Source: Escherichia phage REP4. From it: a stretch of DNA of 64,000 nt. The translations under genes and the position numbers were made by a program. The notes under the pieces were generated by a model. The model did not search any database, had not been told where the DNA came from, and worked only from the letters and a program-made list of their open reading frames with translations. Every line of letters starts with the position of its first letter. Positions within the stretch are counted from its first letter, which is position 1. Shown here in pieces: positions 1,184 through 62,732 of the stretch. The stretch is taken from the sequence record OQ174503.1; one strand, 5' to 3'.

Positions 1184-2043
1184 TTACACCGCCATCTTTC
1201 CTTTCAAGACACCATGGGACTGATAATCTTTGAGAACGAAATCTCGTGCTGTCATATATTCAGTTAACCAATACATTTGAGTTTCAGTATCGCATTGACT
1301 GAATCCATTAGGCCAATTAATACTAAGTTTGCATAGATCCATAGGAGTTCTATTTAATATCTCTTTGCATTGCTCAATATGGTTAGAATAAATGTGTGTA
1401 TTACCACCCGAGAATACCAAATCGCCCGGAACTAGTTCACACATGTCAGCAACAATATGTAAAAGAGCAGCATAACTCGCGATGTTAAATGGAAGACCGA
1501 GGAAAACATCTACCGAACGTTGATACCATTGTAGGTCAAGGTATCCGTTACGCACATTAAACTGATAGAACATATGACAAGGTGGTAATGCCATCTGCTT
1601 GAGTTCAGCTGGATTCCATGCCGACACAATTTGACGTCTATCATTGGGAAATGTTTTAATACGATTAACAACTTCTACAATTTGATCTACACCACCAAAA
1701 TCACGCCACTGTTTTCCGTAAATTGGACCAAGTTCACCGCTATGATAACCTAAGTCTTTGGCCTGGTTTTCGTAGTTTTCATCCCAAATTGTTTTTCCTG
1801 CAATTAAAGATCCATGAGTACGTTGACGTAAATCATTTACGTTAGTACTTCCTGATAAGAACCACAATAACTCAGAAATACATGCATTCCAGGCGAGCTT
1901 CTTAGTCGTTACTGCAGGAAAACCTTTAGTTAAATCCCAGCGTAATTTAGTACCGAACAAAGCAATTGTTCCTGTGCCTGTTCGGTCATCGGTTTCATAG
2001 CCATTTTCCAGAATATCTTTAATTAAAAATTGGTATTGTTTCA

Positions 2044-2044
<1 letters not shown>
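1184..2044 (-). CDS. td: Thymidylate synthase, intron-less, 286 aa
   Basis: ORF track; ATG at M5 (MKQYQF) gives T4 Td length; conserved TS core (PPCH, DLQWYQRSVD, LGLPFNIASYA); uninterrupted reading frame. Confidence 0.95.
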
Positions 2045-3073
<1,029 letters not shown>

Positions 3074-3081
3074 ATTATCTC

Positions 3082-3417
3082 CTAATATAAAGGATCGGGA
3101 ACATATCCACTGGCTTTAATCATTTTGATTAACGTTAGCAGTCCTTTATTAACTGCTTGTGAGATTTCATTAAAAACTTCATCACTAAAAAGTTCTAACA
3201 CTCCCTTCTGAACTTTTAATTTACAACCAACAATTTCGTCATCGCCTATAGTAAATTCGTTTCCGCCAATTCCACCGAAAAACTTAATTACACCAGTTAA
3301 CTGTGTTCCACGAGAATATGGGTCGTGTGATAAAGTAATATGAGTCACCCCAGGTACAGTTTTAAATTGGCAGCGAATGTTTACTTGGGAAATTCCAGTT
3401 ACATGAATGTCAGACAT
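3082..3417 (-). CDS. Hypothetical 111-aa protein
   Basis: ORF track; ATG start with RBS GAGGAAAAT. Confidence 0.6.
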   Translation of the reverse strand: MSDIHVTGISQVNIRCQFKTVPGVTHITLSHDPYSRGTQLTGVIKFFGGIGGNEFTIGDDEIVGCKLKVQKGVLELFSDEVFNEISQAVNKGLLTLIKMIKASGYVPDPLY

Positions 3418-3427
3418 AATATTTTCC

Positions 3428-3670
3428 TCAGACAGACTTTTTCACAATTTTCCAATCAGCTTTAAACTGTTCAACGTCAGAATGATAAATCCAAAATCCT
3501 GCGCTTTCTCCATCCTCATAAAGAGGGCATCCATCACATTCATCTTCCCATCCCATATCACGTAAAAGATGTTCAGCTTTTTCAACAAGTTCAGAATCTT
3601 TACCGATGATATTAAAATACCATTTACCTCTAACTTCTGAATCTTTGATGCTCTGGCGTTGTAATCTCAT
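3428..3670 (-). CDS. Hypothetical 80-aa protein
   Basis: ORF track; preceded by early promoter 3696-3725. Confidence 0.6.
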   Translation of the reverse strand: MRLQRQSIKDSEVRGKWYFNIIGKDSELVEKAEHLLRDMGWEDECDGCPLYEDGESAGFWIYHSDVEQFKADWKIVKKSV

Positions 3671-3695
3671 TTTATTCTCCTTAGTTGATAGGGTA

Positions 3696-3725
3696 ATAGT
3701 ATCACACTACTACCCTTCTGTAAAC
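3696..3725 (-). promoter_or_regulatory. Early promoter (GTTTAC, 18 nt, TACTAT)
   Basis: Minus-strand GTTTAC at 3720-3725, upstream of ORF 3428..3670. Confidence 0.6.
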
Positions 3726-4105
3726 TACTTTTTGAAAGTTTTTCGCAAAAGTTCAATGATTTCATCTACATTGTTTTCGTCTACAATGCAGTGAATTTTT
3801 GTTACGCCAGAAACCTTATCTTCGATTTCATCTTCTTCAGAAGTCGGTTCTTTATACTCACGAAAACAATGAAATTCGTCTTCGCAAATTTCTAAAAGTC
3901 TATCTTTGAGATAAAAATGCTTTCCATTTGCACATTCAATGTGTTTTACTGCTTTGTATCCATTGGCGACGGAAACTTCTTTAACTTCAAACCATCCGCC
4001 ATTATCTCGAATAGCTTTAACTATTGATGAATTAGAACGTGGACTATAATTAATAAATGTATCAATAAGTCTTGGAACAAGTTCATACTTTCTACCAGTA
4101 TACAT
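3725..4105 (-). CDS. Hypothetical 126-aa protein with C-x5-H and C-x5-H-C pairs
   Basis: ORF track; ATG with RBS GAGGAAAAC. Confidence 0.6.
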   Translation of the reverse strand: MYTGRKYELVPRLIDTFINYSPRSNSSIVKAIRDNGGWFEVKEVSVANGYKAVKHIECANGKHFYLKDRLLEICEDEFHCFREYKEPTSEEDEIEDKVSGVTKIHCIVDENNVDEIIELLRKTFKK

Positions 4106-5432: not shown

Positions 5433-5515
5433 TTTTATTTCCTTTTTAATTTAATTAACAGTTGGTGCTATGACGATGTATGACCTCATAGCTGGTCAGT
5501 GAGATAATTATAATC
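5433..5515 (-). promoter_or_regulatory. Gene 32 mRNA leader with autoregulatory translational operator (pseudoknot region)
   Basis: Minus-strand leader contains GUGAGAUAAUUAUCUCACUGACCAGCUAUGAGGUCAUACAUCGUCAUAGCACC, matching the known T4 gene 32 pseudoknot/operator. Confidence 0.7.
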
Positions 5516-5523
5516 TATTTATA
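5516..5523 (-). promoter_or_regulatory. Late promoter box TATAAATA upstream of gene 32
   Basis: Exact TATAAATA on minus strand, about 84 nt upstream of the gene 32 ATG. Confidence 0.6.
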
Positions 5524-5531
5524 ATAAGCAA

Positions 5532-13527: not shown

Positions 13528-16500
13528 ATGGCTACTTTAAAACAAATACAATTTAAAAGAAGCAAAACCGCAGGTGCACGTCCTGCTGCTTCAGTATTAG
13601 CCGAAGGTGAATTGGCTATAAACTTAAAAGATAGAACAATTTTTACTAAAGACGATTCAGGAAATATCATTGACTTAAGCATTTCTGCTGGCGGTAGTAT
13701 CAGTGGAAATATCACTCAAACTGGCGATTATTTACAAAATGGAACATATAATCTTAATGGAAACCAGTTTGTTTATGCAGGAAAATATATTGAATTTTTA
13801 CCTAAAACTGCTGGTAATGGTGCTTGGGCAAATCAACATAAAAATAAAGCTCCTATCTTTACCGATTTGAGTTCAACGACTTCTACTTCAGAATACCATC
13901 CGCTAATTAAACAACGCTATAAAGATGGAACTTTTTCTGTTGGTACGTTAGTAAACGAAGGTAGTTTTAAAATTCAATATATCAATGAATCTGGTGATTC
14001 AAAATATTGGACTTTTAATCGTAACGGTAGTTTTATTGTAGATAATGGCAGTATTGAAGTCCGTGCAGGTAATATTTCTGCATCAGGCAATATTAACTCG
14101 GCAACTGGATTTGTTTCTGCACCGCGCGTCAATACAAAAAATATTAACCTGAGTTCTAAAACCTTTATACCGAATAATGACACGGGTTATGACATTGTTT
14201 CTTTACCTACTTGGATTTATAATCCACCAGCAGATGGTTCTGACCGTGATACAAACGGATTGAACTACATGCGTAAAATGCGGGCTTCAAATACTTCTAG
14301 CATTTTCCATGAAATAGTTGACTGTCGTTCAGGAAAGCCACAAGAAATTTCTTGGTGGACCGGCGTAGGACCTTCGTCTTTCCAGTGGGCATTTGATACC
14401 TCTGGACGTATTACCGCAGGTAAATCTATTTCAGTAGGTCTTCCTGATAGTGGTACAAATGGCCGTTATCCACTTGATTCTGCAATTTCTATTGGTATTG
14501 CGATTGGCGATAACGATACCGGTATTAAATGGGTCCGCGATGGCGTTTATGACCTGATGGCTAACGGTATTTCATCCGCTACCATTTTGAACAACGGTAT
14601 TAATAGTACTAAAAAATTGATGGTTGGTTATAGCCGTGATTCCGGCTCTACTTGGGATTTCCCAAATAACAACCAAGCAATGTTTACTGCGCGTACCGAT
14701 ATTGATGGTAATAATAACGGCGATGGTCAGACTCATATTGGTTATAGCAGCAATTCTAAAATGTATCACTATTTCCGTGGCACGGGTCGTATGGCTGTCG
14801 GAATGGCTGAAGGTTTAATTGTTGAGCCGGGTATTTTAGATATTAAAACTGGGTCCAATAGAGTTGCTATTAGAGCAGATGGTACATTTGACTCAACCCA
14901 ACGTATTTCAATGCGTACTGGATTATTTTTATCAGGTGATGATAATACCAATGCTTTGTCATTTAAAGCGCCTACAGGTGTTGACGGGACAAAAACCATT
15001 AACTGGGATGCAGGCACTCGTAATGGTCAGAATAAAAATACTGTAACCATTAAAGCGTGGGGTAACTCATTTAACTCAACTCCAGGTAATAGAGAAACTG
15101 TATTCGAAGTTTCAGATTCACAAGGTTATTATTTCTACGCTCAACGTACTAATCCTGCGTCAGGTCAAACAGTAGGTCCTATTAATTTTAAATTTAATGG
15201 TACTGTAGAAACTGGACATATTGTTGGGCTCGGAAATATAAGTGCCTCTGGTACAGGTTCTTTTGGTGGCAATGTTACCATGTCTAATGGTTTGTTTGTC
15301 CAAGGTGGTTCTTCTATTACTGGGCAAGTTAAAATCGGCGGAACATCAGATGCATTAAGAATTTGGAATGCTGAATATGGCGCAATTTTCCGTCGTTCTG
15401 AAGATAAGTTTTATATTATTCCAACTCCGCAGAATGCCGGTGAATCAGGTGGTATTTCTAATTTACGTCCGTTCTATATTACATTAAGTAATGGTAAAGT
15501 TTCCATGGATCATGATGTAGATATCGGCGGCGGTAGATTTAAAGTAGAAGTGGCTGGAACTACGGCTGGTCAACGTATTACAGTTAATGCAAGTAGCGAT
15601 GCTATTAGAATAAATGCTCCAACACAAGAGTCTTCTAACTTCATTCAAGGACGTAAGGCTGATGTGCCTAAATGGTATTTGGGTATTGGTGATGGCGGCA
15701 ATGTCGTTCGTATGCACAGCTACACACATTCACATGGTATTGCATTAAATTCTGATTCTGTCGATATTACTAAGCCTCTTAAAGTCGGCAATGCCCAACT
15801 AGGAACTGACGGTAATATTACCAATGGTTCAGGAAACTTTGCCAACTTAAATACCACGTTAAATCGTAAAGTTAATTCTGGATTTATTACTTATGGAGCA
15901 ACCTCTGGATGGTATAAGTTTGCAACTGTAACAATGCCACAATCCACTTCAACAGTCTTCTTTAAAATAGTTGGAGGTTCTGGATTTAATAGCGGATTAT
16001 TCACCCAATGTAATATTGCTGAAATTGTTTTACGTACTGGTAATGAAAGACCTTCTGACTTAAATGCTGTATTATACACAAGAACAACTGGAATGTATAG
16101 CGCAGCATTTAGAAATATTGCAGTTAACAATGTCTCTGGAAATACATATGACATTTATGTTTATGCTGGAACATATTGTAATCAACTAGTTTGTGAATGG
16201 TCATGTACCGAAAATGCTACTGTTAGCGTTATTGGTATTAACTCATCTACCCAATCACCTGTGGATGCTCTTCCAGATACAGCAGTTGATGGGCAAGTTG
16301 CTAATGTTCTTAATAACTTGGTTGATCGCGGTAAAGTTAAGCGTTATGAAGCCGATTCTGAAATAGCTATTAATAGCCCAACCGGTATTCGTATCAGAAG
16401 CAATGGCGATAAAACTGGTTCTGTTGCTACAATGCTACGAAATGATGGCGGCAGTTTTTATATTCTGTTTACAGATAAAAATGCCACCGATGGCGCAGCA

Positions 16501-17316
16501 ACTGTTAATGGTGATTGGAATAGTAAACGTCCTTTCGCAATTAACTTAACAACCGGCGAAGTGATGATGAATAATGGCATAGCTGTTCGCAGCGCTGCTT
16601 TATTCTATAATAGCATAAACGTCAAAGATAATGGTTCTATTAACTTTGATAAATCAGGTGCTAACCCGAGAAATATGAGAATATTTCATGCTGGCGATGC
16701 TTCTCGCGGTAACCGCATTGAAATTGCAGATGAAACTAACTATATTGCTTACTTTGAAAAGACTCCAGGTGGAGCTAACCGCTTTGTAGTAAATAATGCT
16801 ACTGTAGCTGGTGTTAACCAAATGAATTCATTTGGTATTAATATCAATAACGCACTTGGTGGAAATAGTATAGCATTTGGTGATAATGACACTGGAATTA
16901 AACAATCCGGTGACGGACTTCTTGATATTATTACTAACGCCGCACGCCGAATGAGATTCCAGACAGGTGACACCTATTCTGACATGAATATAAACGCTCC
17001 AAACGTTTATATTCGTTCTGATATTCGTTTGAAATCTAATTTCAGACCTATTGAAAATGCTCTTGAAAAGGTTGAACAGCTTGATGGTTTAATCTATGAT
17101 AAAGCTGACTATATAGGTGGTGAAATTGTTCAGACTGAAGCGGGTATTGTGGCTCAAACACTGCAAGATGTTTTACCAGAAGCAGTTCGTGAAGTTGAAG
17201 ATATTAAAGGTAATAAAATACTCACTGTTTCTTCTCAATCCCAGATTGCTCTTCTAGTTGAAGCTGTGAAAACACTTTCTGCTCGTGTAAAAGAACTTGA
17301 ATCTAAACTTATGTAA
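13528..17316 (+). CDS. 37: Long tail fibre distal subunit gp37 with C-terminal intramolecular chaperone domain, 1262 aa
   Basis: ORF track; N-terminus MATLKQIQFKRSKTAGARPAASVLAEGELAINLKDR typical of gp37; C-terminal SDIRLK...AQTLQDVLPEAV resembles S74-type autoproteolytic chaperone domains. Confidence 0.92.
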   Translation: MATLKQIQFKRSKTAGARPAASVLAEGELAINLKDRTIFTKDDSGNIIDLSISAGGSISGNITQTGDYLQNGTYNLNGNQFVYAGKYIEFLPKTAGNGAWANQHKNKAPIFTDLSSTTSTSEYHPLIKQRYKDGTFSVGTLVNEGSFKIQYINESGDSKYWTFNRNGSFIVDNGSIEVRAGNISASGNINSATGFVSAPRVNTKNINLSSKTFIPNNDTGYDIVSLPTWIYNPPADGSDRDTNGLNYMRKMRASNTSSIFHEIVDCRSGKPQEISWWTGVGPSSFQWAFDTSGRITAGKSISVGLPDSGTNGRYPLDSAISIGIAIGDNDTGIKWVRDGVYDLMANGISSATILNNGINSTKKLMVGYSRDSGSTWDFPNNNQAMFTARTDIDGNNNGDGQTHIGYSSNSKMYHYFRGTGRMAVGMAEGLIVEPGILDIKTGSNRVAIRADGTFDSTQRISMRTGLFLSGDDNTNALSFKAPTGVDGTKTINWDAGTRNGQNKNTVTIKAWGNSFNSTPGNRETVFEVSDSQGYYFYAQRTNPASGQTVGPINFKFNGTVETGHIVGLGNISASGTGSFGGNVTMSNGLFVQGGSSITGQVKIGGTSDALRIWNAEYGAIFRRSEDKFYIIPTPQNAGESGGISNLRPFYITLSNGKVSMDHDVDIGGGRFKVEVAGTTAGQRITVNASSDAIRINAPTQESSNFIQGRKADVPKWYLGIGDGGNVVRMHSYTHSHGIALNSDSVDITKPLKVGNAQLGTDGNITNGSGNFANLNTTLNRKVNSGFITYGATSGWYKFATVTMPQSTSTVFFKIVGGSGFNSGLFTQCNIAEIVLRTGNERPSDLNAVLYTRTTGMYSAAFRNIAVNNVSGNTYDIYVYAGTYCNQLVCEWSCTENATVSVIGINSSTQSPVDALPDTAVDGQVANVLNNLVDRGKVKRYEADSEIAINSPTGIRIRSNGDKTGSVATMLRNDGGSFYILFTDKNATDGAATVNGDWNSKRPFAINLTTGEVMMNNGIAVRSAALFYNSINVKDNGSINFDKSGANPRNMRIFHAGDASRGNRIEIADETNYIAYFEKTPGGANRFVVNNATVAGVNQMNSFGININNALGGNSIAFGDNDTGIKQSGDGLLDIITNAARRMRFQTGDTYSDMNINAPNVYIRSDIRLKSNFRPIENALEKVEQLDGLIYDKADYIGGEIVQTEAGIVAQTLQDVLPEAVREVEDIKGNKILTVSSQSQIALLVEAVKTLSARVKELESKLM
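17017..17313 (+). other. Putative intramolecular chaperone / autoproteolysis domain at gp37 C-terminus
   Basis: Motif S-D-I-R-L-K followed by about 95 helical residues, as in tail-fibre and endosialidase chaperone domains. Confidence 0.6.
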
Positions 17317-17317
17317 A

Positions 17318-17335
17318 AGAGGGCTTCGGCCCTCT
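17318..17335 (+). other. Intergenic RNA hairpin AGAGGGC-TTCG-GCCCTCT between 37 and 38
   Basis: Perfect 7-bp GC stem with UUCG loop directly upstream of the gene 38 SD (AAGGA); no clean U-run, so more likely an attenuator or stability element than a full terminator. Confidence 0.5.
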
Positions 17336-17346
17336 AAGGATTTTTA

Positions 17347-18138
17347 ATGGCAATTGTAGGTGTTCCTGGCTGGATTGGTGAATCTGCCGTGAATGAAACT
17401 GGACAACGTTGGATGGATGCTGCAATGAAAGCAGTTCGTGTTTCAGTTCCTGGTTGGATGAGCTCAATGGCTGGACAATCTAAAGAAGTATATTACAGCA
17501 TTGGTGCTAGCAATTCTTATAATAAAGATACGCTAATAAATTGGATAAAAGCCCAAGGAAGTACTCCTGTTGTTATTACTATTACAGGAAATATTGTTTC
17601 TCAATCTACTGGTGTTCCATGCTTAGATTTTCCTAGCTCATTAACTAATGCATATGTTACCTTAAATATTAATAGTGGGGTTCATGTATTAGGTCGGGGA
17701 GGAAATGGCGGAAGTAACTCTGCTGGTGGAGCAGGAGGAACTGCAATAAATAACGGAATTGGAACTCGTTTAAGAATAAACAATAATGGTATTATTGGTG
17801 GCGGCGGCGGTGGCGGCGCAGGTGCTAGATACAATCCTTTCCCTCAAATGGATATGAAATTTGGTGGCGGCGGAGGTCGTCCATTTGGCGCAGCTGGCGC
17901 AGCAGGAGGTGGCGCAGCTGCAGCATCTGCTGGTACAATTTCTGCTCCCGGTAAAGGCACTGTTTCTGGGGTTCACCATGGAGGAGATGGTGGAGATTTA
18001 GGAGCTGCTGGCAAATCTTCATATATTCAAGGTGGTACTGGAGGAACTATTCACTCGGGTGGCGCAGCAGGTAAAGCTGTTACTGGTAATGCTCCAACTT
18101 GGACTAAAGTTGGTACAATATATGGTGCAAGAGTATAA
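17347..18138 (+). CDS. 38: Tail-fibre adhesin gp38 (T2/T6 type) with glycine-rich motifs, 263 aa
   Basis: ORF track; conserved N-terminal gp37-binding region followed by poly-Gly islands (GGGGGGGAGA, GGGGGRPFGAAGAAGGGAAA, GGDGGDLGAAG, GGTGGTIHSGGAAG) separated by variable segments. Confidence 0.92.
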   Translation: MAIVGVPGWIGESAVNETGQRWMDAAMKAVRVSVPGWMSSMAGQSKEVYYSIGASNSYNKDTLINWIKAQGSTPVVITITGNIVSQSTGVPCLDFPSSLTNAYVTLNINSGVHVLGRGGNGGSNSAGGAGGTAINNGIGTRLRINNNGIIGGGGGGGAGARYNPFPQMDMKFGGGGGRPFGAAGAAGGGAAAASAGTISAPGKGTVSGVHHGGDGGDLGAAGKSSYIQGGTGGTIHSGGAAGKAVTGNAPTWTKVGTIYGARV

Positions 18139-21680: not shown

Positions 21681-21830
21681 TTACTGCATGACTGTGATAA
21701 CTGTCATGATAACACGTTGAATGCCGAACGCAAGAAGACCTCCTGCTACGGCTGGAACAACACCTAAACCCGCCAGTAAAATGCTACCAGATACTAATGC
21801 TGCGCTTGTAATACCAATGAATGGACTCAT
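21681..21830 (-). CDS. Hypothetical 49-aa hydrophobic peptide translationally coupled to gene 52 (not in ORF track)
   Basis: Manual translation MSPFIGITSAALVSGSILLAGLGVVPAVAGGLLAFGIQRVIMTVITVMQ; ATG overlaps gene 52 stop (ATGA). Confidence 0.5.
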   Translation of the reverse strand: MSPFIGITSAALVSGSILLAGLGVVPAVAGGLLAFGIQRVIMTVITVMQ

Positions 21831-23155
21831 TTGATTTCCTCTAAATCTTTAGTGTATTCTGTAACTACATCAGTAGTTTTCCAATATTCGTTTTCTTCTT
21901 TCTTAGCTTTAGCTTCTTCAGCAAGTTTCTTTGCTTCGTCGGAAGTCATATGAAAAATATTCATTCCGACTAGTTTATCAACATAAGAAGAATACATCTC
22001 AATTTTAGAAAGTTCTTCGGTCAGTTCTTTGCGAGTTTTACCCTGTACAACGATTTCACCTGAAATTACTTTCTTAATGAAATGTGCCTTGGCAAAGGCT
22101 AAACGAAATGCTGATTCAGTTTCTTTGATTTTGTTATCAATTCGTTTTTGGACATAAGTTTTACGAACTTCAACGAAGTCTTTAATTAAATCAACTACGT
22201 TATCGTAAACTTGTAACTTTCCTTTCTCGTTGATGACTGTAATATTTTGGGAACGACGCTCAATCAACCCGAAGTCTTTCATGATTTTTGCATGGCGTTC
22301 TTCTTCGTTATCGCTCAAAGAATATTCTTTGCGAAATTTAACTTTAAAGCCAAAACCATGCTCACCACAAGCATCATCCCATGTAATGAAGCCCTTATCT
22401 TCAAGCGGGTCTAAGATTTTACTCACATAAGTTTCACGATCATACTTATACGGAATCTCAGTGATATTCATTTGAGTTCGTGAAGTAAACTTGTACGTTC
22501 CACGAATTTCATATTGACCGTCAATTTCAACGACTTCACCACGAAATTCTGGGAATTCTACCTTCGGTTTAGTTACTTTCTTTCCTTGAAGAACTTGTAA
22601 TACAGCTTTCTTAACAGAAGAAACGCTATGAGGAAGAATGTAAGTTGCATAACCAGTTGCAATACCGGAAACACCATTAAGAAGAACAGTAGGAATAATA
22701 GGCAAATAGAAAGCAGGAGGAATGTGTTCTTTATCTTGATGTACCGGAGCATATTCAGTATCTTTATACACGCTATAGAAATTTTTACTTACACGAGCAA
22801 AAATATAACGACTTGCCGCTGCTTTTTGAACAGTACGAGAACCAAAGTTTCCTTGACCATCTAACAAAGGAAAGTTATTATTCCATGTGTTAGCCATCAA
22901 AGCCCCCGCATCTTGTGCAGAGTTTTCGCCATGATGATACCCAAGGTCAGCTACACCACCTGCAATAGAAGCAAGTTTGTGAAACTTATCTTTATTTCCC
23001 CGTGCCAAATCAAGAGCTCGAGCGATAACAAATCGTTGAACTGGCTTAAATCCATCAATCATATTTGGAATAGCACGATTTTCAACCGTGTACATAGCAT
23101 AAGCCAATGCTTCATTATCAATGATACTTTTTAAATCGCGATTATTCAGTTGCAT
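21827..23155 (-). CDS. 52: DNA topoisomerase II medium subunit gp52 (GyrA-like cleavage core), 442 aa
   Basis: ORF track; size identical to T4 gp52; N-terminus MQLNNRDLKSIIDNEALAYAMYTVENRAIPNMIDGFKPVQR. Confidence 0.95.
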   Translation of the reverse strand: MQLNNRDLKSIIDNEALAYAMYTVENRAIPNMIDGFKPVQRFVIARALDLARGNKDKFHKLASIAGGVADLGYHHGENSAQDAGALMANTWNNNFPLLDGQGNFGSRTVQKAAASRYIFARVSKNFYSVYKDTEYAPVHQDKEHIPPAFYLPIIPTVLLNGVSGIATGYATYILPHSVSSVKKAVLQVLQGKKVTKPKVEFPEFRGEVVEIDGQYEIRGTYKFTSRTQMNITEIPYKYDRETYVSKILDPLEDKGFITWDDACGEHGFGFKVKFRKEYSLSDNEEERHAKIMKDFGLIERRSQNITVINEKGKLQVYDNVVDLIKDFVEVRKTYVQKRIDNKIKETESAFRLAFAKAHFIKKVISGEIVVQGKTRKELTEELSKIEMYSSYVDKLVGMNIFHMTSDEAKKLAEEAKAKKEENEYWKTTDVVTEYTKDLEEIK

Positions 23156-29922: not shown

Positions 29923-29952
29923 ATTATACCACATCCTTGTGGTAAAGTAAAC
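29923..29952 (-). promoter_or_regulatory. Early promoter (GTTTAC, 18 nt, TATAAT)
   Basis: Minus-strand GTTTAC at 29947-29952 and TATAAT at 29923-29928. Confidence 0.65.
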
Positions 29953-31769
29953 TACTGGCTCATCCATTCTTTACGAAGGTCAGCATTATCTCCCATGAGC
30001 ATTTCAAAAAGCTCTTTCCAATTCTCAGGAAGTTTAACAACATCATATACTGGATTTTGAATCATCTCACGATATTCAGATTTTTCCAAAGAGCCAAGTC
30101 CTTTAATATAACGGATGCTATGTTTAGGTAGAGCATCTTTGGCACTCTCATATTCAGCGACTGTATAAAACCATTCTTGTTTTTTACCGACCTGAGCGAT
30201 GATTACAGGAGTTTTGACAAAGCGAATTCTTCCTTGTTCAAACAATTCTGGCCAATTACTAAAAAATCCGAGCAGAGAAGGATAAATGCTTCCTAGACCA
30301 TCATGGTCAGCATCAGTCATAATAGCAATATTATGATAATTCAAGTTTTCGGCTTTTTCACCAAGAACTAATCCAGTGATTGCGCAAATATCAAACAGTT
30401 CTTTGTTTTTAAGCATATCAGCATATGACATACCCCAACTGTTGAGAACTTTACCACGCAATGGATAACCGCCATGAAGTTCTTTATCACGAACATCAAT
30501 AAGATATCCGATAGCAGAATCACCCTCAGTCAAGAAAAGAGTAGTGTCAGCATCTTTACCACAAAGATTCGCTTTAATATGTTTATGAACCTTAGCTTTA
30601 GAGGCCTTTTTAGCTGCTTTAGTTTCAGCTGCTTTTTCTGCCGCCAATTTACGAGCCAAGGCAGCTTCAATAATTGGCATTAAAATTGCTTCATTATTCA
30701 AAATAGCACGTGAAATCTTTTTAGCATCAAGCTGAATATGACTACGGATTTCACCAAATGGAGAAGTCAAACGCTCTTTAGTTTGAGAATCAAATCGCAT
30801 GTTTTTCATATCACGAACAAACATAACGATAGTCAAGCATTCTTTAACACGTGCTTTAGTTACATCAATTTTGAATTTACGTTTGATTTGTGGAATAAGG
30901 TCTTCACAAATATCATCCATAACACAGTCAATATGATGGCCACCATTCTTAGTATGAATGTTATTGACGTATGTTAATTGACGAAAACCATCAGGTGAAC
31001 GACCGACCGCAATAGAACAATTTTCTTGTTCTTGAACAATAGCATGTTCATCATATTGGCGTGCATATTTCTTAAAATTACCCTGAACCTTTTTACCATT
31101 AAATGTAAATTGAATATCAGGATAAACTACTGCAAGTGTCTGGAGACGATCCAGTGTAATGTCAAGATAAACTTGAGATAGCTCATTAGTTTCAAATGAC
31201 ATAAAATCAGGAATGAAAGTAACGCGAGTTCCTTTCCATTTTCCAGGAATATCTTCCCACGATTTATTTTCCATGCCGTTTGAACAACGAACTACAATAT
31301 TATTTTGACCATCACCAGTTTCACCGACAAACATCACAGAAAAAATGTTAGTTAAACTAGAACCAACACCGTTCATACCACCAGTGACGCGTTCTTTATC
31401 ATCACCGAAGTTACCACCTGCTTTTGGAATAGTCCATGCAGCAACTGGACCAGGAATTTCTTCACCAGTAGGTGTTTTAACCATCGCCTGCGGAATACCA
31501 CGACCGTTATCTTCAACTGTTACTTGATTGTTTTTAATAGTAACATTAATTTTATTTGCGAATTTAAACTTAGTACGAATACCTTCATCTACTGAGTTAT
31601 CGATAATTTCATCAATAAGCTTAACAAGACCAGGTACATACTGAACACTTTCCCATTTACCAAACAGAAAGCGCTCATGCATTTCATTAGCAGAAGAACC
31701 AATGTACATGCCGCTACGCTTTTTGATATGTTCAATATCGCTCAGAATTTTAATTTCATTCTTAATCAT
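29952..31769 (-). CDS. 39: DNA topoisomerase II large subunit gp39 (GyrB-like ATPase plus TOPRIM), unsplit, 605 aa
   Basis: ORF track start is GTG; ATG one codon downstream (MIKNEIKILSDIEHIKKRSGMYIGSS); single reading frame covers both T4 gp39 and gp60 equivalents. Confidence 0.95.
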   Translation of the reverse strand: MIKNEIKILSDIEHIKKRSGMYIGSSANEMHERFLFGKWESVQYVPGLVKLIDEIIDNSVDEGIRTKFKFANKINVTIKNNQVTVEDNGRGIPQAMVKTPTGEEIPGPVAAWTIPKAGGNFGDDKERVTGGMNGVGSSLTNIFSVMFVGETGDGQNNIVVRCSNGMENKSWEDIPGKWKGTRVTFIPDFMSFETNELSQVYLDITLDRLQTLAVVYPDIQFTFNGKKVQGNFKKYARQYDEHAIVQEQENCSIAVGRSPDGFRQLTYVNNIHTKNGGHHIDCVMDDICEDLIPQIKRKFKIDVTKARVKECLTIVMFVRDMKNMRFDSQTKERLTSPFGEIRSHIQLDAKKISRAILNNEAILMPIIEAALARKLAAEKAAETKAAKKASKAKVHKHIKANLCGKDADTTLFLTEGDSAIGYLIDVRDKELHGGYPLRGKVLNSWGMSYADMLKNKELFDICAITGLVLGEKAENLNYHNIAIMTDADHDGLGSIYPSLLGFFSNWPELFEQGRIRFVKTPVIIAQVGKKQEWFYTVAEYESAKDALPKHSIRYIKGLGSLEKSEYREMIQNPVYDVVKLPENWKELFEMLMGDNADLRKEWMSQ

Positions 31770-31810
31770 CACTTATCCTCGTTTGGTTTCGGGAATATTA
31801 TACTCCGGTA

Positions 31811-31838: not shown

Positions 31839-32099
31839 TTATTTAAAACGGATAGTCGAATCCTTGAAGAAAAGACCAGAACATACTGTTCCTTCTACTT
31901 TCTGCCCGGTAGGTCCAATAGCACGAAATCCAGTATGTTGGAAATCATTTTCAGAGCAACCGAACCAATTATATCCAGTGATTTCAATATTAGTAAAACC
32001 ACTTGAAGACAGAACTTTGGTTGCATTATCAGCATCAGTACATCCTACTAAAGATACTGCTAATACTATTGCCGCGATAGAACGATTAACATATTTCAT
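31839..32099 (-). CDS. Putative lipoprotein, 86 aa (39.1 position)
   Basis: ORF track start is TTG; ATG at MKYVNRSIAAIVLAVSLVGC with lipobox L-V-G-C; mature part has two further Cys. Confidence 0.65.
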   Translation of the reverse strand: MKYVNRSIAAIVLAVSLVGCTDADNATKVLSSSGFTNIEITGYNWFGCSENDFQHTGFRAIGPTGQKVEGTVCSGLFFKDSTIRFK

Positions 32100-32103
32100 A
32101 ATT

Positions 32104-32475
32104 TCACTCAAATTTAATGGCTTGAAGAAGACTAATAATTCTCAAGCGACTTCTTTCATCTTTAACTGTAAAAGAAAGAGGGTCGCCAGATTTCATAGTG
32201 ATAGTGCATTCAAAATCAAAATCTTCGGAAACTTCTTTGAAGAAGTCAAATTCTTCATCATAAATTAGAACACTACTCCGCAGACTATGAAGAACTTTTC
32301 CATCATTTCCAGATGCTGTACTAATCATTGTAACATTATGACCTTTCATATCTTCAACGATAAATTCACTAGTCAATATTACAGCATTAATAGAACTATT
32401 CCTATTACTAGCAGAAAGTAGATATTTCTGTTCTTCACCTTCACGAATGCGATATTTCTTACCAATTTTAAACAT
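32104..32475 (-). CDS. Hypothetical 123-aa protein
   Basis: ORF track; ATG start. Confidence 0.6.
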   Translation of the reverse strand: MFKIGKKYRIREGEEQKYLLSASNRNSSINAVILTSEFIVEDMKGHNVTMISTASGNDGKVLHSLRSSVLIYDEEFDFFKEVSEDFDFECTITMKSGDPLSFTVKDERSRLRIISLLQAIKFE

Positions 32476-42959: not shown

Positions 42960-42967
42960 TATTTATA
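42960..42967 (-). promoter_or_regulatory. Late promoter box TATAAATA for soc
   Basis: Exact TATAAATA on minus strand about 30 nt upstream of soc ATG. Confidence 0.8.
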
Positions 42968-43141
42968 TCAGTCTTCAACGAAAACTTGCGCCAGGAATTC
43001 ATGTTCATCTTGAATTTGTTTATATAAAGCCATTACAGCATTTATATTAGAGCTATCTACTTTAAGCTGATAAGCATACAACTCGTATAAATTAATTAAA
43101 GCTTTTTGACGTCTAATAAATTCTTCTTTGGATATTTTCAT
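42968..43141 (-). CDS. Hypothetical 57-aa protein (soc.1 position; not in ORF track)
   Basis: Manual translation MKISKEEFIRRQKALINLYELYAYQLKVDSSNINAVMALYKQIQDEHEFLAQVFVED; ATGA overlap with upstream ORF. Confidence 0.45.
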   Translation of the reverse strand: MKISKEEFIRRQKALINLYELYAYQLKVDSSNINAVMALYKQIQDEHEFLAQVFVED

Positions 43142-43341
43142 TTTGAATGTTCTATAATTAATTTTAAGGCTTCTTCGCTGACAAAAATTTCATCAGGACC
43201 TTCTTCTACAACCCAATCAACCACACGAAGCTGATTAGATAAGAGCTCACATACGAGCTCCTTGTCATAATTTTTAAATAGCTGGTCAATACGTTTCTTG
43301 CGGGCTTTCTTAAGCTGGCGTTTATTTAAACGAGCCATCAA
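43138..43341 (-). CDS. Hypothetical 67-aa basic protein (soc.2 position)
   Basis: ORF track; ATG overlaps gene 56 stop. Confidence 0.55.
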   Translation of the reverse strand: MMARLNKRQLKKARKKRIDQLFKNYDKELVCELLSNQLRVVDWVVEEGPDEIFVSEEALKLIIEHSK

Positions 43342-43856
43342 TAACCTCGGTCTTGACGAGCGAAGTTTTCAGCATTTTTCAGATAATAAAGTTTAAAGAT
43401 TTCTTCAGCCGTAAGACCGAGACCTTGGAACATGTTCAGAACGAAATGAAGAATATCAATCATTTCAAATTTAATTTCCAACTGGTCTTGCGGAGACAAA
43501 TCAGTAATTAGAGTTTCACGACGTTCACCATGCTGTGACTTCCAAGGTTTCCATACAGCAGATGCATCTTTTTCGCCATTGCTCATACCGCCAAGAGATG
43601 TCAGAAGTTCACGGAATTCATCGTCAATATAATCTTTCTGATTACGCAGCCAATCAACAACTTCACCAGCAGTAGCCAAATCATCAGGATGACGGTTATA
43701 TTCAGGTTTATCTTTAGCTAAACGAACCTGCAAAGATTTCTGCATATCAAGCATAACCTGCAGCGGGTCTTTTTCATCACCGAGAATATCCCAGTATTCG
43801 TTTTGAGCTTTATCAGCGCCTTCGATCAGTTGTGAACATTCATTAAAGTATGCCAT
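43338..43856 (-). CDS. 56: dCTP/dUTP pyrophosphatase gp56 (MazG-like), 172 aa
   Basis: ORF track 43338..43949 shortened to ATG at MAYFNECSQLIEG; size and position as T4 gp56; N-terminal extension in track runs through intergenic DNA. Confidence 0.85.
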   Translation of the reverse strand: MAYFNECSQLIEGADKAQNEYWDILGDEKDPLQVMLDMQKSLQVRLAKDKPEYNRHPDDLATAGEVVDWLRNQKDYIDDEFRELLTSLGGMSNGEKDASAVWKPWKSQHGERRETLITDLSPQDQLEIKFEMIDILHFVLNMFQGLGLTAEEIFKLYYLKNAENFARQDRGY

Positions 43857-43927
43857 TATTTTTCCTTTCAATTCATGGATTAGTAGATTAATTATACAAT
43901 AAATATATAAAGCAATAAGGAGGACAT

Positions 43928-46299: not shown

Positions 46300-46346
46300 A
46301 CTAGTAGAAGCAAACAGACAAATTGCAATAATTGGTGATTTCAGTT

Positions 46347-46541
46347 TCATTCTTCTCCTCCTTCATGTTGATGAACATATTCTTTTTCAAGTCTAGAGCA
46401 CAAGTTTTCATATTCAACTAATAAAAGTGAATCAAGTGCGTTATTTCTATGCTGACACCGTTCTTGTAAAGAATCCATCTCTGAACGTTGTTCTTGTGTT
46501 AATAATTGATAACCTGATACTTTAGACATTTTGTTCTCCAT
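46347..46541 (-). CDS. Hypothetical 64-aa acidic helical protein
   Basis: ORF track; ATG; no counterpart I can place in the T4 61-41 interval. Confidence 0.55.
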   Translation of the reverse strand: MENKMSKVSGYQLLTQEQRSEMDSLQERCQHRNNALDSLLLVEYENLCSRLEKEYVHQHEGGEE

Positions 46542-46593
46542 TTACTCGTTTGTTTTGATAGGTCTATAATAACATGTTTAAAACAAAAGTAAA

Positions 46594-46848
46594 CTATTTT
46601 ATTTCCTCAAGTTCGTTAATCAATAAAAGTTCTCTGACGCTAAAAACAAAGAAAAATGTGTTCCCATCAACCAGAGCATGACCGCTAATAGAACACCCTC
46701 TGCGGAATTTAGAAACTTCACAATCTAGAACTGTAAAAGGTTTTAATCCTATGACTTTAGCTGTGCGTCTATTCAGTTCACAACCACTCGCGAATTTTTC
46801 CAAATCTTCTTCTGATTTAAACTGATATTCTCTATTAACTAGCATCAT
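46594..46848 (-). CDS. Hypothetical 84-aa protein with three Cys
   Basis: ORF track; preceded by its own early promoter. Confidence 0.55.
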   Translation of the reverse strand: MMLVNREYQFKSEEDLEKFASGCELNRRTAKVIGLKPFTVLDCEVSKFRRGCSISGHALVDGNTFFFVFSVRELLLINELEEIK

Positions 46849-46879
46849 TTTCTTTTCTCCGCGATTAGCTGATAGAATT

Positions 46880-46909
46880 ACTATAACACAACTCTATCAG
46901 CTTGTAAAC
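46880..46909 (-). promoter_or_regulatory. Early promoter (GTTTAC, 18 nt, TATAGT)
   Basis: Minus-strand GTTTAC at 46904-46909. Confidence 0.65.
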
Positions 46910-46911
46910 TA

Positions 46912-47154
46912 CTATTTTACTAGCATCAATAGCTGTTTCTCTAACTTGACGATTTTACGAAAGTATCTTTTGCATTGGCGAATCTGTCGCTTCGTAGGGC
47001 GCACAGCAAACTTAATAAATTCCACTCGACCAAATGGAGGGCTTTCTTCTGCTGGAATATCTAACACCAATTCCCACGTATCTGCAACAAGTGCTTTGAA
47101 TTGAGTATTTTTCCTGACATTATATGGAGTAGGTTTAAATAAAACAATATGCAT
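46912..47154 (-). CDS. Hypothetical 80-aa basic protein at the T4 61.4 position (the gene reported as toxIN inhibitor TifA in T4)
   Basis: ORF track 46912..47196 shortened to ATG at MHIVLFKPTPY with RBS GAGGATAAT; Lys/Arg-rich C-terminus; assignment by position only. Confidence 0.5.
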   Translation of the reverse strand: MHIVLFKPTPYNVRKNTQFKALVADTWELVLDIPAEESPPFGRVEFIKFAVRPTKRQIRQCKRYFRKIVKLEKQLLMLVK

Positions 47155-49178: not shown

Positions 49179-50352
49179 TAAATTCTTCCATATCACTTAA
49201 CTGATCTAGGTCAGTTTCTAAATCAGCTGCTGATTTGTTTTTACTTTCTGGAGATTTAAATTTTTCAACCTTTGAGTTAATCAATTCATCAACTTCAGCT
49301 TCAACAATTTCATTACTATCAATAGCACCTAACTGATAAGCACGTTTAATAGCATCTCGGAATGGCTGATGCTTAAATAAAGGACCCCAGAATGTAGTGC
49401 AATTGGTATCTTTTGCACGCCAAGATTTTTCTTCGCGAATCATCTCGCCGGTTTCTTCATCAAGAAATTCACGAGCATACCAACCATTTTTAGGTTTTAC
49501 CACAAATCCTAATTCAAGAGCCATATCTAACAATCCAGAATAAGGATCGATACCACCGTCAAATTTAACATCAATAAAAAATTTACTTTTTTCTTTAACG
49601 GTACGAGATTTTTCTACATTTAGAACAAATTGATACCCCTGAAGATCAGAACCATCTTTAATCTGGCGCTTACCGATAATGAATACAGTATCAGCCGAAT
49701 ACATTACGCCTGTACCACCTGTCATCACGGTTTTACTAAACATTTCAATTGTTTCAATTGTATGGTTAACCGCAACACATGGAATGTTTTTAATACTAAA
49801 ATAAGGAGTAACAATACGGAATAATGACTTCAGCGATTTAGCACGAGTCATATCTGCCACAGATTTTTCATTCAAGGCATCTTCCGTTTCTTTCTTAGAA
49901 GCCATATTACCGATTGAGTCGATAAATACAATAACTTTTTCACCGCGCTCAATAGCTTCAAGCTGATTCACCATATCAATTTTCAGCTGTTCAACTGACT
50001 GAATTGGCGTATGAATTACTCGTTCCGGGTCAACTCCCATGGATCGCAAATAAGCTGGAGTAATACCAAATTCGCTATCATAAAATAGACAAACCGCATC
50101 AGGATATTTGTTCAAATACGCCGCAACCATAGTCAAAGACATATTTGATTTAAAGTGTTTAGAAGGACCTGCAAAAATAGTTAAACCAGACTGCATACCA
50201 CCATCAATCGCGCCAGAAATAGCGATATTGAGCATTGGAATTTTTGTACGGATTACATCCTTTTCATTAAAGAATTTAGATGTAGTCAGTTCAGCAGTCA
50301 TTTTAGAAGTGGAAGCTTTAATCAAACGGGATTTTAAATCTGCAATAGACAT
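49171..50352 (-). CDS. uvsX: UvsX recombinase (RecA family), 393 aa
   Basis: ORF track; near-identical to T4 UvsX (Walker A GPSKHFKS; C-terminal acidic tail). Confidence 0.96.
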   Translation of the reverse strand: MSIADLKSRLIKASTSKMTAELTTSKFFNEKDVIRTKIPMLNIAISGAIDGGMQSGLTIFAGPSKHFKSNMSLTMVAAYLNKYPDAVCLFYDSEFGITPAYLRSMGVDPERVIHTPIQSVEQLKIDMVNQLEAIERGEKVIVFIDSIGNMASKKETEDALNEKSVADMTRAKSLKSLFRIVTPYFSIKNIPCVAVNHTIETIEMFSKTVMTGGTGVMYSADTVFIIGKRQIKDGSDLQGYQFVLNVEKSRTVKEKSKFFIDVKFDGGIDPYSGLLDMALELGFVVKPKNGWYAREFLDEETGEMIREEKSWRAKDTNCTTFWGPLFKHQPFRDAIKRAYQLGAIDSNEIVEAEVDELINSKVEKFKSPESKNKSAADLETDLDQLSDMEEFNE

Positions 50353-50429
50353 TCATTTTTTCCATAGGCATCATTATATTTTCCTCACTGGTTAAAGATA
50401 GAATAATTATAACACAATAAATTTAGGCA

Positions 50430-51272
50430 TTAATCGACTGCTATTGGATGAATAGCATTAAACTTATGAAACGCTTCTGATTTTTCTTTGCGCGAAACAC
50501 ACATGCGAAGAACCTTTAATGGCTCGTCTTCTTCACCTAATGATTTTCGTTTTTCAATATTAGAAGTTTTCCAACGAGCTTGCTCTGGAAACTCTTTATT
50601 GATTTGCTCAAGAGCTCTATTATGTTTTGAATTACTACGAATTGAACTACATCCGCCTGGAGCTTGTGCTTTTCCAGACACAACCAGATATTTGAACAAA
50701 GCCAAATGCGGATAACCCTGATTAATTAAATTGAGAAATGCATACATATCTTCGCATAAATCAATTTTTCCATACCCAATTTGTTCTGTAGTAAGTTTTC
50801 CGAGGTCATACCATGTATTCGTGAATCCATATGAATTTTCACGATAATTACCCCAAGATGAAGTAATTTTAAAAATAGGTAGACGAGCATGACCGTGATA
50901 ATACCCGCAATCCATGGCATCTTCAACGTATTGAATCAATTCATAGAACTGTTCACGAGTTAATTGATTAATTTTATCTACGCAGCGACGATCATCTTTC
51001 TTTCGCATTGAACTCATACGAATAGTAGTATCATCATCAATCATCCAAATTCGTTGACCTGCATACATATCAGTAATTGCTTTACGAGTTCCAGCAATTC
51101 CATTAACATCATCAGGAATAGTTATAATTTTAGCCCTAGACCCGTAAGCGTCATAATAAGCTTTTTCTTCATGTTCACGTACTACAATATGAGGTTCATA
51201 ATCAGTCGGAAACATATCAAGGGCAGAAACTGCCCCTACGCGTTGATAGCTTGGAATTACGAATTGAATCAT
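50430..51272 (-). CDS. ba-gt: GT-A fold glucosyltransferase, 280 aa, at the position where T4 encodes b-gt; probable beta-alpha-glucosyltransferase of T2/T6 type
   Basis: ORF track start is GTG; ATG at MIQFVIPSYQR overlapping gene 42 stop (ATGA); DxD-type motif WMIDDDTT; 280 aa versus 351 aa for T4 b-gt. Confidence 0.65.
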   Translation of the reverse strand: MIQFVIPSYQRVGAVSALDMFPTDYEPHIVVREHEEKAYYDAYGSRAKIITIPDDVNGIAGTRKAITDMYAGQRIWMIDDDTTIRMSSMRKKDDRRCVDKINQLTREQFYELIQYVEDAMDCGYYHGHARLPIFKITSSWGNYRENSYGFTNTWYDLGKLTTEQIGYGKIDLCEDMYAFLNLINQGYPHLALFKYLVVSGKAQAPGGCSSIRSNSKHNRALEQINKEFPEQARWKTSNIEKRKSLGEEDEPLKVLRMCVSRKEKSEAFHKFNAIHPIAVD

Positions 51273-52009
51273 TTCCACTCACCGTTATAATCTTTTTTCG
51301 CAATATGAGTTTCGCCAGTTTTCCACCAATGGTCAACCAAATAAAAATGACGGGAATACACATGAAGGCTACCGACATTCCATATAATGGAACCTGCTTT
51401 ATACTGACGAGTTGAATCACCTGCATTCAAATCAGATACTAATTTATCTAGTACATATTTTTGCCATGCATAATCATTACGGAATCCGAAGACCACGTCA
51501 TTTGAACGCATGTTAACCACTGCATTAATTTTCTTATCACGAATCAGGTACTGTACTGTATTAGTACACATGAAATCCGACATGCCATCTTTATTGTAGT
51601 CAAACTGCATGGATGGACGAGTATAAATCATGATACCGCGTCGAGAATCAGGATTTTGACCAAGTTCAGCTAAACACATATCATACTGGGCATAGTTATC
51701 TTCTGACCAGATGGCCCAACCATAATTCGAGTTAATTTCGCCTTTAGAAGATGCTACCTGCTGCCAAATCTTCGGCGTTTCACCTGGAATATCTTTAACA
51801 AACAAACTTTGAGACTTATACCATTCAAGTTCACGCTGAATGTATTCATCATTAAGAGCGCCAAAAATAAAAGGTTCATCTGCTACAAATGATGCACCAA
51901 TAATTTCAATAGTTTTAACACCGGTTTTATCAATTACGAAATCTTTTTCCTTTAATGCAAGACCCAAATCAAGACGGATTTCTTCAACTGTCATATAATC
52001 GTTAATCAT
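51269..52009 (-). CDS. 42: dCMP hydroxymethylase gp42, 246 aa
   Basis: ORF track; size identical to T4 gp42; thymidylate-synthase-like fold motifs. Confidence 0.93.
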   Translation of the reverse strand: MINDYMTVEEIRLDLGLALKEKDFVIDKTGVKTIEIIGASFVADEPFIFGALNDEYIQRELEWYKSQSLFVKDIPGETPKIWQQVASSKGEINSNYGWAIWSEDNYAQYDMCLAELGQNPDSRRGIMIYTRPSMQFDYNKDGMSDFMCTNTVQYLIRDKKINAVVNMRSNDVVFGFRNDYAWQKYVLDKLVSDLNAGDSTRQYKAGSIIWNVGSLHVYSRHFYLVDHWWKTGETHIAKKDYNGEWK

Positions 52010-52421: not shown

Positions 52422-52802
52422 TCACTTAGTCAAATTTTTTACGCATGAATTATAAGAATTCACTACATACTCCATCGGAGCATTTTTACCTGTACGCCAT
52501 TGGTAATTATTAGCCCAATTAGCCCAAAGCTCAGCGCAGTAGTTTTCAATTTTTTCTTCGCGTGTAATTACATCTGAATTACGATATGCTTGAGCAGATT
52601 CATCTGGGCGAATAGCTTCGTCAAAATTCGCCTGCATCTGTTCTACTGTCTGTTTTGGAGCTTCTTTATAACACTTGACGTTAGGATTATAAAATTTGCT
52701 TGAACAGTTTACAATTTTTCCTACATCAGACTGATTTACTACCGGTCCTTGAGCTACACATCCAGTAAGACCCAATACAATAACCAAAATAGCGATTTTC
52801 AT
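52422..52802 (-). CDS. Putative lipoprotein, 126 aa
   Basis: ORF track; signal peptide MKIAILVIVLGLTGC with lipobox L-T-G-C; four further Cys in mature part. Confidence 0.65.
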   Translation of the reverse strand: MKIAILVIVLGLTGCVAQGPVVNQSDVGKIVNCSSKFYNPNVKCYKEAPKQTVEQMQANFDEAIRPDESAQAYRNSDVITREEKIENYCAELWANWANNYQWRTGKNAPMEYVVNSYNSCVKNLTK

Positions 52803-61716: not shown

Positions 61717-62732
61717 TGTGTTGCCTCTACATATAACTGATTTGCATATTGAATAAGTGCTTCGCGGTCAGAATCAGTGATGTCTGGAATTGCATTAATA
61801 TATTCTTCCATCAACGTTTGAAGAGATTGAACTTCAACTTCTTCACTATCATCTGACTCGACAGAGTTATCAATCTTTGACACAACTCGTAATGAATGCA
61901 CAACTTTTTCTAGTTCAGATTCGAACTTCGTTAGATTTTTGTCTACTTCAGTTACTATAACACGCACTGATAGATTTGTAAAATCTTTATAGTCAATTTT
62001 TCCCTTAAATGGATATTGAATTCGACGATGCCAGGTGGTGTTGTTTGGAATAAATTCCATTCGTTCTGTTTCTGTATCAAACATCCAGAACCCGCGAGGG
62101 TCATTCTCGTCACCTGCAGTTAGTGTCCATGGTGTCCCAATATATCTGACGTTAGCAGCCTCAGAGATAGTATGGAAGTGACCAGACCACACCTCTTTAT
62201 AAGTCTTAAGGAAATCAGGTTCAAGACCGTGAGATTTCATTCCTTTATAAAAATAAAATCCATTCAGTTCCCAGTGACCAACACAAAAAGAAGCAGATGA
62301 AGTTTTGATGTGTTCAAGAATTTCACCAGTATTTTCTTCGCACATCCAAGGAATTAAATCAATCAAACATCCGTCAAAATCTACTGTAGTAGGCTTATCA
62401 TATACTTTAACATTAGGATATTTAGCCAAAAGCTCAGTAGAAGCATTTGGAGTTAAAGTATTTTTAAAGTGCATATCATGGTTTCCTACAACAGTATGTA
62501 GGGTAATACCAGCATCATCAAGCATTTGAACTATTTCACGTGCGAACTCCATAGTTTTATGCGTGATTGCTTTTCGCACATCAAAAATATCACCGTATTG
62601 AATCCATGTAGTAATTCCATTTTTCTTAGAATATTCTATCGCCTGCTTAATTCCATCCAACTGGATTGATTGAACCCACTCATCATCGGCTTTAACACCT
62701 AAATGCCAATCACCTAAATTTAAAATTTTCAT
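61713..62732 (-). CDS. 47: Recombination endonuclease subunit gp47 (Mre11/SbcD-like nuclease), 339 aa
   Basis: ORF track; size identical to T4 gp47; phosphoesterase motifs (GDWHLG, GDIFD, GNHD). Confidence 0.96.
   Translation of the reverse strand: MKILNLGDWHLGVKADDEWVQSIQLDGIKQAIEYSKKNGITTWIQYGDIFDVRKAITHKTMEFAREIVQMLDDAGITLHTVVGNHDMHFKNTLTPNASTELLAKYPNVKVYDKPTTVDFDGCLIDLIPWMCEENTGEILEHIKTSSASFCVGHWELNGFYFYKGMKSHGLEPDFLKTYKEVWSGHFHTISEAANVRYIGTPWTLTAGDENDPRGFWMFDTETERMEFIPNNTTWHRRIQYPFKGKIDYKDFTNLSVRVIVTEVDKNLTKFESELEKVVHSLRVVSKIDNSVESDDSEEVEVQSLQTLMEEYINAIPDITDSDREALIQYANQLYVEATQ

Follow-up and report, generated by a model that had tools for sequence, protein, structure and literature searches.

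Gene 39 of Escherichia phage REP4 is uninterrupted and resembles the parental alleles of T-even phages

Gene 39 and its genetic context

The part of the Escherichia phage REP4 genome considered here (sequence record OQ174503.1) is a stretch of 64,000 nucleotides, referred to as the window. Gene 39 lies on its minus strand, flanked on one side by rIIB, rIIA and rIIA.1 and on the opposite side by 39.1. On the basis of these flanking genes the window can be assigned to Tequatrovirus (the T-even phages), and at variable loci it is like T2 and T6. The nearest sequenced relatives of REP4, for example vB_EcoM_SYGD1, are 96-98% identical to it. The features that bear on the analysis are collected in Table 1.

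Table 1. Features of the REP4 window that bear on gene 39 and on the T4 element loci (positions in the 64,000-nt window)
Feature	Position	Strand	Basis
Gene 39, predicted complete large (GyrB-like) type IIA DNA topoisomerase subunit, 605 aa	29952..31769	-	ORF, Pfam, T6/T2 matches
64-nt "parental" segment, gene nt 1419-1482, residues A473-I494	30288..30351	-	Sole part of gene 39 not collinear with T4
Position of the 50-nt coding gap of T4 gene 60; REP4 GGT/CTA (G491/L492) unbroken	30294..30299	-	Base-level comparison
Gene 52, GyrA-like cleavage-religation subunit, 442 aa, partner of gp39	21827..23155	-	ORF; collinear with T4 gene 52 (163876-165204), ~96% nt identity
td, thymidylate synthase, uninterrupted 286-codon frame	1184..2044	-	ORF; blastn and tblastn against T4
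32/59 empty site; T4 has segG	5495..5531	-	Synteny map; T4 147918-148542 without counterpart
soc-56 interval; T4 has segF; in REP4 two small ORFs (57 and 67 aa), no nuclease domain	42967..43375	-	Synteny map, Pfam
uvsX-42 interval; T4 has segA and beta-gt; in REP4 a 282-aa TAGT-family glycosyltransferase, like T2	50340..51287	-	Synteny map, Pfam

Where does the gene begin? In the list of open reading frames, the minus-strand frame (29952..31772) opens with GTG, and an ATG follows one codon further on, at 31769. This ATG is the likely start, since a GAGGA Shine-Dalgarno sequence stands 6 nt ahead of it and the product then begins with MIKNEIK, as does T4 gp39. Counted from the ATG, the gene comprises 1818 nt, that is, 605 codons and a stop. 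A frame of 605 codons in DNA of 36% G+C, whose product shares ~99% identity with an enzyme of solved structure, can be taken not to be due to chance. A scan for promoters and terminators around the gene was set aside, the promoter-like sites being fewer than in shuffled sequence. The product of the neighbouring 39.1 homologue (31839-32111, minus strand) is 90 aa long and carries a lipoprotein-like signal (…LAVSLVGC). The T4 reference annotates a shorter product of 65 aa, and the length in REP4 is near the 86 aa of the T2 and RB59 versions.

In its layout, gp39 combines a GHKL ATPase and a transducer with a contiguous TOPRIM domain (E415, D486, D488, D490). Motifs of the N-terminal ATPase and transducer are found at EIIDN54, DNGRG87 and GGMNGVG130, and the metal-binding E...DxD residues stand in one frame: E415 in LTEGDSA, and D486 and D488 in TDADHDG. 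The roles of these metal-binding residues come from the structures of the T6 enzyme (PMC11461880). Pfam matches to HATPase_c (E=2e-9), DNA_gyraseB (E=1.4e-13) and TOPRIM_C all exceed the curated cut-offs. The protein is similar over its full length to a characterised B-type subunit of type IIA enzymes, and the window also carries the gene for an A-type partner, gene 52. As read from its sequence, REP4 gene 39 encodes a complete ATPase/TOPRIM subunit of a type IIA topoisomerase. A single mRNA, translated conventionally, would yield the 605-aa protein, which together with gp52 would make up a type IIA topoisomerase of A2B2 composition, like those of T2 and T6, with a presumed activity to match.

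Comparison with T4 genes 39, mobA and 60

T4 encodes the orthologous enzyme at the same genomic position, in the order 39, mobA/60.1 and 60. For the comparison the whole T4 reference genome (NC_000866) was assembled locally and the 64-kb window was mapped onto it. Window positions 32101-30352 are collinear with T4 5661-3911, and positions 30287-29600 with T4 2793-2106; between these blocks REP4 has 64 nt (30288-30351), whereas T4 has ~1.1 kb. At the protein level, BLAST aligns residues 1-473 of REP4 gp39 with residues 1-473 of T4 gp39 (98.5% identity) and residues 472-605 with residues 27-160 of T4 gp60 (95.5% identity). The claim of an earlier note on this DNA, that a single 605-codon frame covers what T4 divides between genes 39 and 60, is thus borne out by matches to both T4 halves.

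What T4 has in addition is missing. BLAST found no counterpart in the window of T4 2794-3910, the stretch that comprises the C-terminal extension of gp39, mobA/60.1, the N-terminal extension of gp60 and the 50-nt gap. T4 gp39 ends in a 43-aa tail (FEEKEDGEW...RKNL*) that is absent from REP4, which reads EKA/ENLNYHN at this point, and the first ~30 residues of T4 gp60 (MKFVKIDSS...) have no equivalent in REP4. There is no split reading frame with element-encoded C- and N-terminal extensions in REP4, where one continuous frame is found. The variant homR copy carried by T4 is also lacking.

At the hop position, REP4 reads GAT GGT CTA GGA AGC, whereas T4 reads GAT GGA UAG...(50 nt)...GGA UUA GGU. 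This position in REP4 contains no UAG, no matched pair of GGA take-off and landing codons and no gap. Translation of T4 gene 60 needs a 50-nt bypass, whereas that of REP4 gene 39 needs no recoding. The earlier note had stated that there is neither a gene 60 nor a translational bypass, and the straight reading through the hop site and the absence of T4 2794-3910 agree with this. It had also proposed an alignment against T4 genes 39, 60 and mobA; the alignment reveals no frame interruption, and the T4 cassette is absent from REP4.

The T4 element sits within the TOPRIM domain, after A473 and between the catalytic residues E415 and D486-x-D488, with the hop after G491. In REP4 the domain is contiguous, and E415, A473, D486, D488 and G491 are all present. 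Might the assembly have collapsed a real cassette or intron? Nothing was found in favour of such an artefact, which is scarcely credible: the frame runs cleanly across the junctions, and T2 and hundreds of independent genomes show the same arrangement with base-for-base the same length.

The unsplit gene among T-even phages

Gene 39 of T2 (AP018813, 2447..4264) has the same length of 1818 nt and differs from that of REP4 at 68 nt and 1 aa (96.3% nucleotide identity). T6 gp39 (PDB 8YLU/8YOD), part of a two-subunit Topo II, shares 603 of 605 residues with REP4 gp39 (99.7% identity, E=0) and differs at the other 2. The T2 and T6 genes share with REP4 the domain order, the catalytic residues, the neighbours (rIIA, rIIA.1 and 39.1) and an intact MobA target; only drift dominated by synonymous changes separates them. 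Biochemical work by Huang and colleagues in the 1980s reportedly found the T6 39-protein to be equivalent to the T4 39 and 60 proteins together. More recently, cryo-EM structures of T6 gp39 have been determined, and the two-subunit Topo II of T6 was found to relax DNA in an ATP-dependent manner (PMC11461880). The large subunit has been described as a single open reading frame in T4-related phages except T4 (PMC3014915).

How common is the unsplit gene? A 2.6-kb query across rIIA.1, gene 39 and 39.1 matched 550 phage records. The gene is contiguous in 507 of them (one alignment over at least 80% of the 2.6-kb query), and the T4 cassette (T4 2794-3910) is present in only 43, among them several laboratory stocks of T4. 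In phage ime09 the gene is annotated as "gp60plus39". The unsplit gene 39 is the usual, parental and ancestral state in T-even phages, as was already known, and the split gene of T4 is the exception. With 507 records for the uninterrupted gene against 43 for the cassette, there is nothing special to REP4 in having the common form. The earlier note was right that REP4 gene 39 is uninterrupted, but in measuring REP4 against T4 it inverted the framing of common and parental versus exceptional.

Genomes that lack MobA have been termed parental by Manning and Atkins (bioRxiv 10.1101/2022.08.31.505936). Compared with the parental Topo2L alleles that they describe (for example RB14, or ime09 with its "gp60plus39"), REP4 is another member of the group, with no difference detected. 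The numbering is shared (insertion window at AA 466-473, D490/G491 at the 3' end of the insertion) and the 64-nt segment is present, so that the residue numbering and this segment of REP4 fit their description of parental genes exactly.

Search for homing endonucleases in the window

No GIY-YIG or HNH gene was detected in the 64 kb by any of four methods. Sixteen T4 proteins (15 endonucleases and gp60.1) used as tblastn queries gave no significant match in the window; for the T4 MobA fragment, gp60.1 and the intact MobA of RB59, the best window match had E=0.76. No HNH endonuclease frame of 269-279 aa, as in a MobA cassette, lies between topoisomerase reading frames in REP4. Profile HMMs run against all six frames of the 64 kb reached E=0.31 at best (E=0.47 for the best match of the HNH profile). 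Pfam searches at E<=1 on twenty reading frames (seventeen specific to the window together with the T4-homologous 39.1, rIIA.1 and gp38) revealed no nuclease family; reading frames at least 74% DNA-identical to annotated non-endonuclease genes of T4 took their identity from the T4 annotation. The absence of GIY-YIG and HNH reading frames from the window, as asserted in the earlier note, therefore holds for tblastn, profile HMMs and Pfam, none of which gave a significant match.

The HMMs were built from the T4 Seg and Mob proteins. In leave-one-out trials they recovered segF, I-TevI, I-TevII, mobA, mobB, mobC and mobE; segG was recovered weakly (E=0.014) and the truncated I-TevIII was missed, which means that HNH relics could be overlooked if very divergent or fragmentary. 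Three sets of tblastn matches were rejected as chance, none of them recurring in the profile search: mobC (E=0.02, 62418-62576) lies inside the conserved gene 47, mobE (E=0.037, 52455-52568) is antisense to imm.1, and segB/segC (E about 0.3, 39-238) lies inside nrdA.

As a positive control, the same probes detect a mob-like HNH gene in T2 between 46 and 46.1. This gene (AP018813, 32898-33750; E=7e-10 by tblastn with T4 MobD) is possibly split into two reading frames; it is absent from T4 and from REP4, where the corresponding junction lies at ~61253-61260. The REP4 window is even emptier of endonucleases than T2 in this region.

td and the other element loci

The td gene likewise has no insertion. 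T4 thymidylate synthase (residues 1-286) aligns with REP4 td by tblastn in a single piece at 79% identity, and blastn found T4 143547-144563, which holds the ~1-kb td group I intron with I-TevI, to be missing from the window; its position would fall between window positions 1496 and 1495. The intron-less td reported in the earlier note is accordingly upheld by alignment to T4 td. The I-TevI homing site of REP4 td departs from that of T4 at 7 of about 39 positions, with the CAACG cleavage motif retained. The gene is a mosaic outlier, with 79% amino acid identity to T4 and 89% nucleotide identity to T2, next to frd, 32 and 59 at 94-99% amino acid identity. A 68-aa reading frame (2044-2250, minus strand) without Pfam match sits exactly between frd and td, where stop and start codons overlap; at this spot the two genes overlap directly in T4, and T2 has a different reading frame (347 nt).

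T4 carries five elements in the region that corresponds to the window, and each of them represents a minority state among ~550 related records. The mobA cassette is carried by 43 of these, segF by 50, segA by 27, segG by 142 and the td intron by about 200-260. A rough estimate that assumes independence suggests that about a third of such genomes are empty at all five loci. The all-empty state is thus unremarkable and can be expected to be common. An alternative reading is that the total lack of homing endonucleases marks a lineage selected to resist or purge them, for example by means of cleavage-resistant target variants. No element is found in the 64 kb, and both td (79% amino acid identity) and gene 56, the target of SegF (73% protein identity), are strongly diverged from T4, which is what such a reading draws on; with each element in the minority anyway, it is highly improbable.

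In the uvsX-42 interval, the glycosyltransferase gene itself (50430-51278, minus strand; TAGT, or TET-associated, family) is collinear with T2 22282-23124. Because it replaces segA and the beta-glucosyltransferase of T4, its presence implies that glucosylation of hydroxymethylcytosine would be of the T2/T6 type and not of the T4 type. The dam gene is absent at 43896-43917, where almost nothing separates gene 56 from the region upstream of 61; at the equivalent place T4 has dam (16846-17625) and T2 has dam and one more reading frame (15202-16620). A tblastn search with T4 Dam gave no match in the whole window.

The MobA element and its target site

The layout of genes 39, mobA and 60 in T4, with its 50-nt hop, is the outcome of invasion by a MobA homing-endonuclease cassette. 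The element is 1097-1106 nt long (Manning and Atkins, bioRxiv 10.1101/2022.08.31.505936). It enters Topo2L at residues 466-473 and ends directly past D490/G491; the parental gene loses 55-75 nt on insertion (64 nt in the example given), and the lost stretch is swapped for a diverged copy, "homR", and the bypass cassette (bioRxiv 10.1101/2022.08.31.505936). Most cassette-bearing records encode an intact endonuclease. In the T4 reference (NC_000866, 3450-3667) mobA is annotated as a 37-aa pseudogene and ORF 60.1, and it shows 11 scattered single-base insertions when compared with RB59 and other T4 records that have an intact 272-aa MobA. From the sequence, this pattern looks more like legacy sequencing error than like decay.

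Is the REP4 gene a target? In the account given by Manning and Atkins, which cites Bonocora et al. 2011, intact MobA nicks T2 in the equivalent region, the split gene and the bypass pass into T2 in mixed infection, and the bypass insert shields the invaded genome against further nicking (bioRxiv 10.1101/2022.08.31.505936). Between REP4 and T2, gene nt 1420-1532 are 100% identical, and the sole flanking difference is at nt 1419. The identical run takes in the 64-nt nick and insertion segment minus its first base (nt 1419), as well as the bypass position, so that REP4 has the sequence of the T2 substrate across the nick region up to that edge base. Because of this identity over nt 1420-1532, we strongly infer that REP4 is susceptible to MobA. 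That its gene 39 would be a MobA substrate is well supported, the nick site being taken from the secondary description. MobA from a co-infecting phage that bears the cassette would nick REP4 gene 39, and recombinational repair would then convert the nicked gene into the split form.

The earlier note had called the window a naive target for the homing endonucleases of co-infecting phages. For MobA this probably stands, given the T2-identical target and the published nicking of T2; for td and gene 56 it is less certain. At td, susceptibility to I-TevI is less certain than in the MobA case because of the 7 of about 39 homing-site differences and the 79% protein identity to T4, and gene 56 at its 73% identity is likewise a less certain target than the MobA site. 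The idea of a naive target restates published work on MobA and T2 and on marker exclusion; the homing endonucleases of T4 account for the exclusion of T2 markers (PMC2988022).

The site might instead be refractory, if flanking substitutions or DNA modification (T2/T6-type glucosylation, no Dam methylation) blocked the endonucleases. The window lacks beta-gt and dam and has a T2-type glycosyltransferase, one substitution relative to T2 (nt 1419) falls at the edge of the target segment, and the td homing site carries the differences given above. Yet T2 has the same glucosyltransferase locus and, according to the literature cited above, is nicked and converted in vivo; the core of the target, the edge base aside, is 100% identical to that of T2, and many homR polymorphisms alone failed to stop nicking by MobA (bioRxiv 10.1101/2022.08.31.505936). 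A block at this site is therefore very unlikely.

Has gene 39 always been intact? The lineage could once have had the MobA cassette, with the intact gene restored later through recombination with a relative that had escaped invasion. Tequatrovirus genomes are mosaic, the divergence from T4 is far greater in td and gene 56 than in the genes around them, and "hit and run" histories have been described in other clades (bioRxiv 10.1101/2022.08.31.505936). The 113 nt of perfect identity to T2 within a gene of 3.7% divergence would also be compatible with a recent exchange, but the 3' third of gene 39 is generally poor in differences and the identical run needs no special cause. Neither element-derived C- or N-terminal extensions nor a homR variant have left a trace, and the outcome would be functionally indistinguishable from a gene that was never invaded. 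Such a secondary loss seems quite unlikely. We put at roughly 95% the probability that REP4 gene 39 is an ordinary, never-split parental allele without the MobA cassette, whose intact T2-like target should be open to nicking. No observation runs counter to this reading of the gene structure.

Annotation and further loci

The correct label for gene 39 of REP4 is full-length topoisomerase II large subunit (gp39, corresponding to T4 gp39 and gp60 together), and the genome is to be annotated without the MobA/bypass cassette, the td intron, segA, segF and segG. Beyond annotation the importance is small: that uninvaded alleles serve as homing recipients, with marker exclusion as the consequence, was established with T2 and T6. 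REP4 could be used as one more recipient strain in crosses with homing endonucleases, and it raises no new question.

Two other loci of the window deserve mention. The tip of the tail fibre (13528-18138, plus strand) is of the T2 type, with a gp37 of 1262 aa and a gp38 adhesin of 263 aa (Pfam GP38, E=5.5e-69). At the DNA level these genes share only 65-75% identity with T2 and for the most part cannot be aligned to T4, so that the receptor specificity of REP4 probably differs from that of T4. Between the equivalents of T4 sp and 61.4 there is a 633-nt insertion specific to the window (46300-46933, minus strand); it contains two small reading frames (84 and 64 aa) without Pfam match and is only partly shared with T2.
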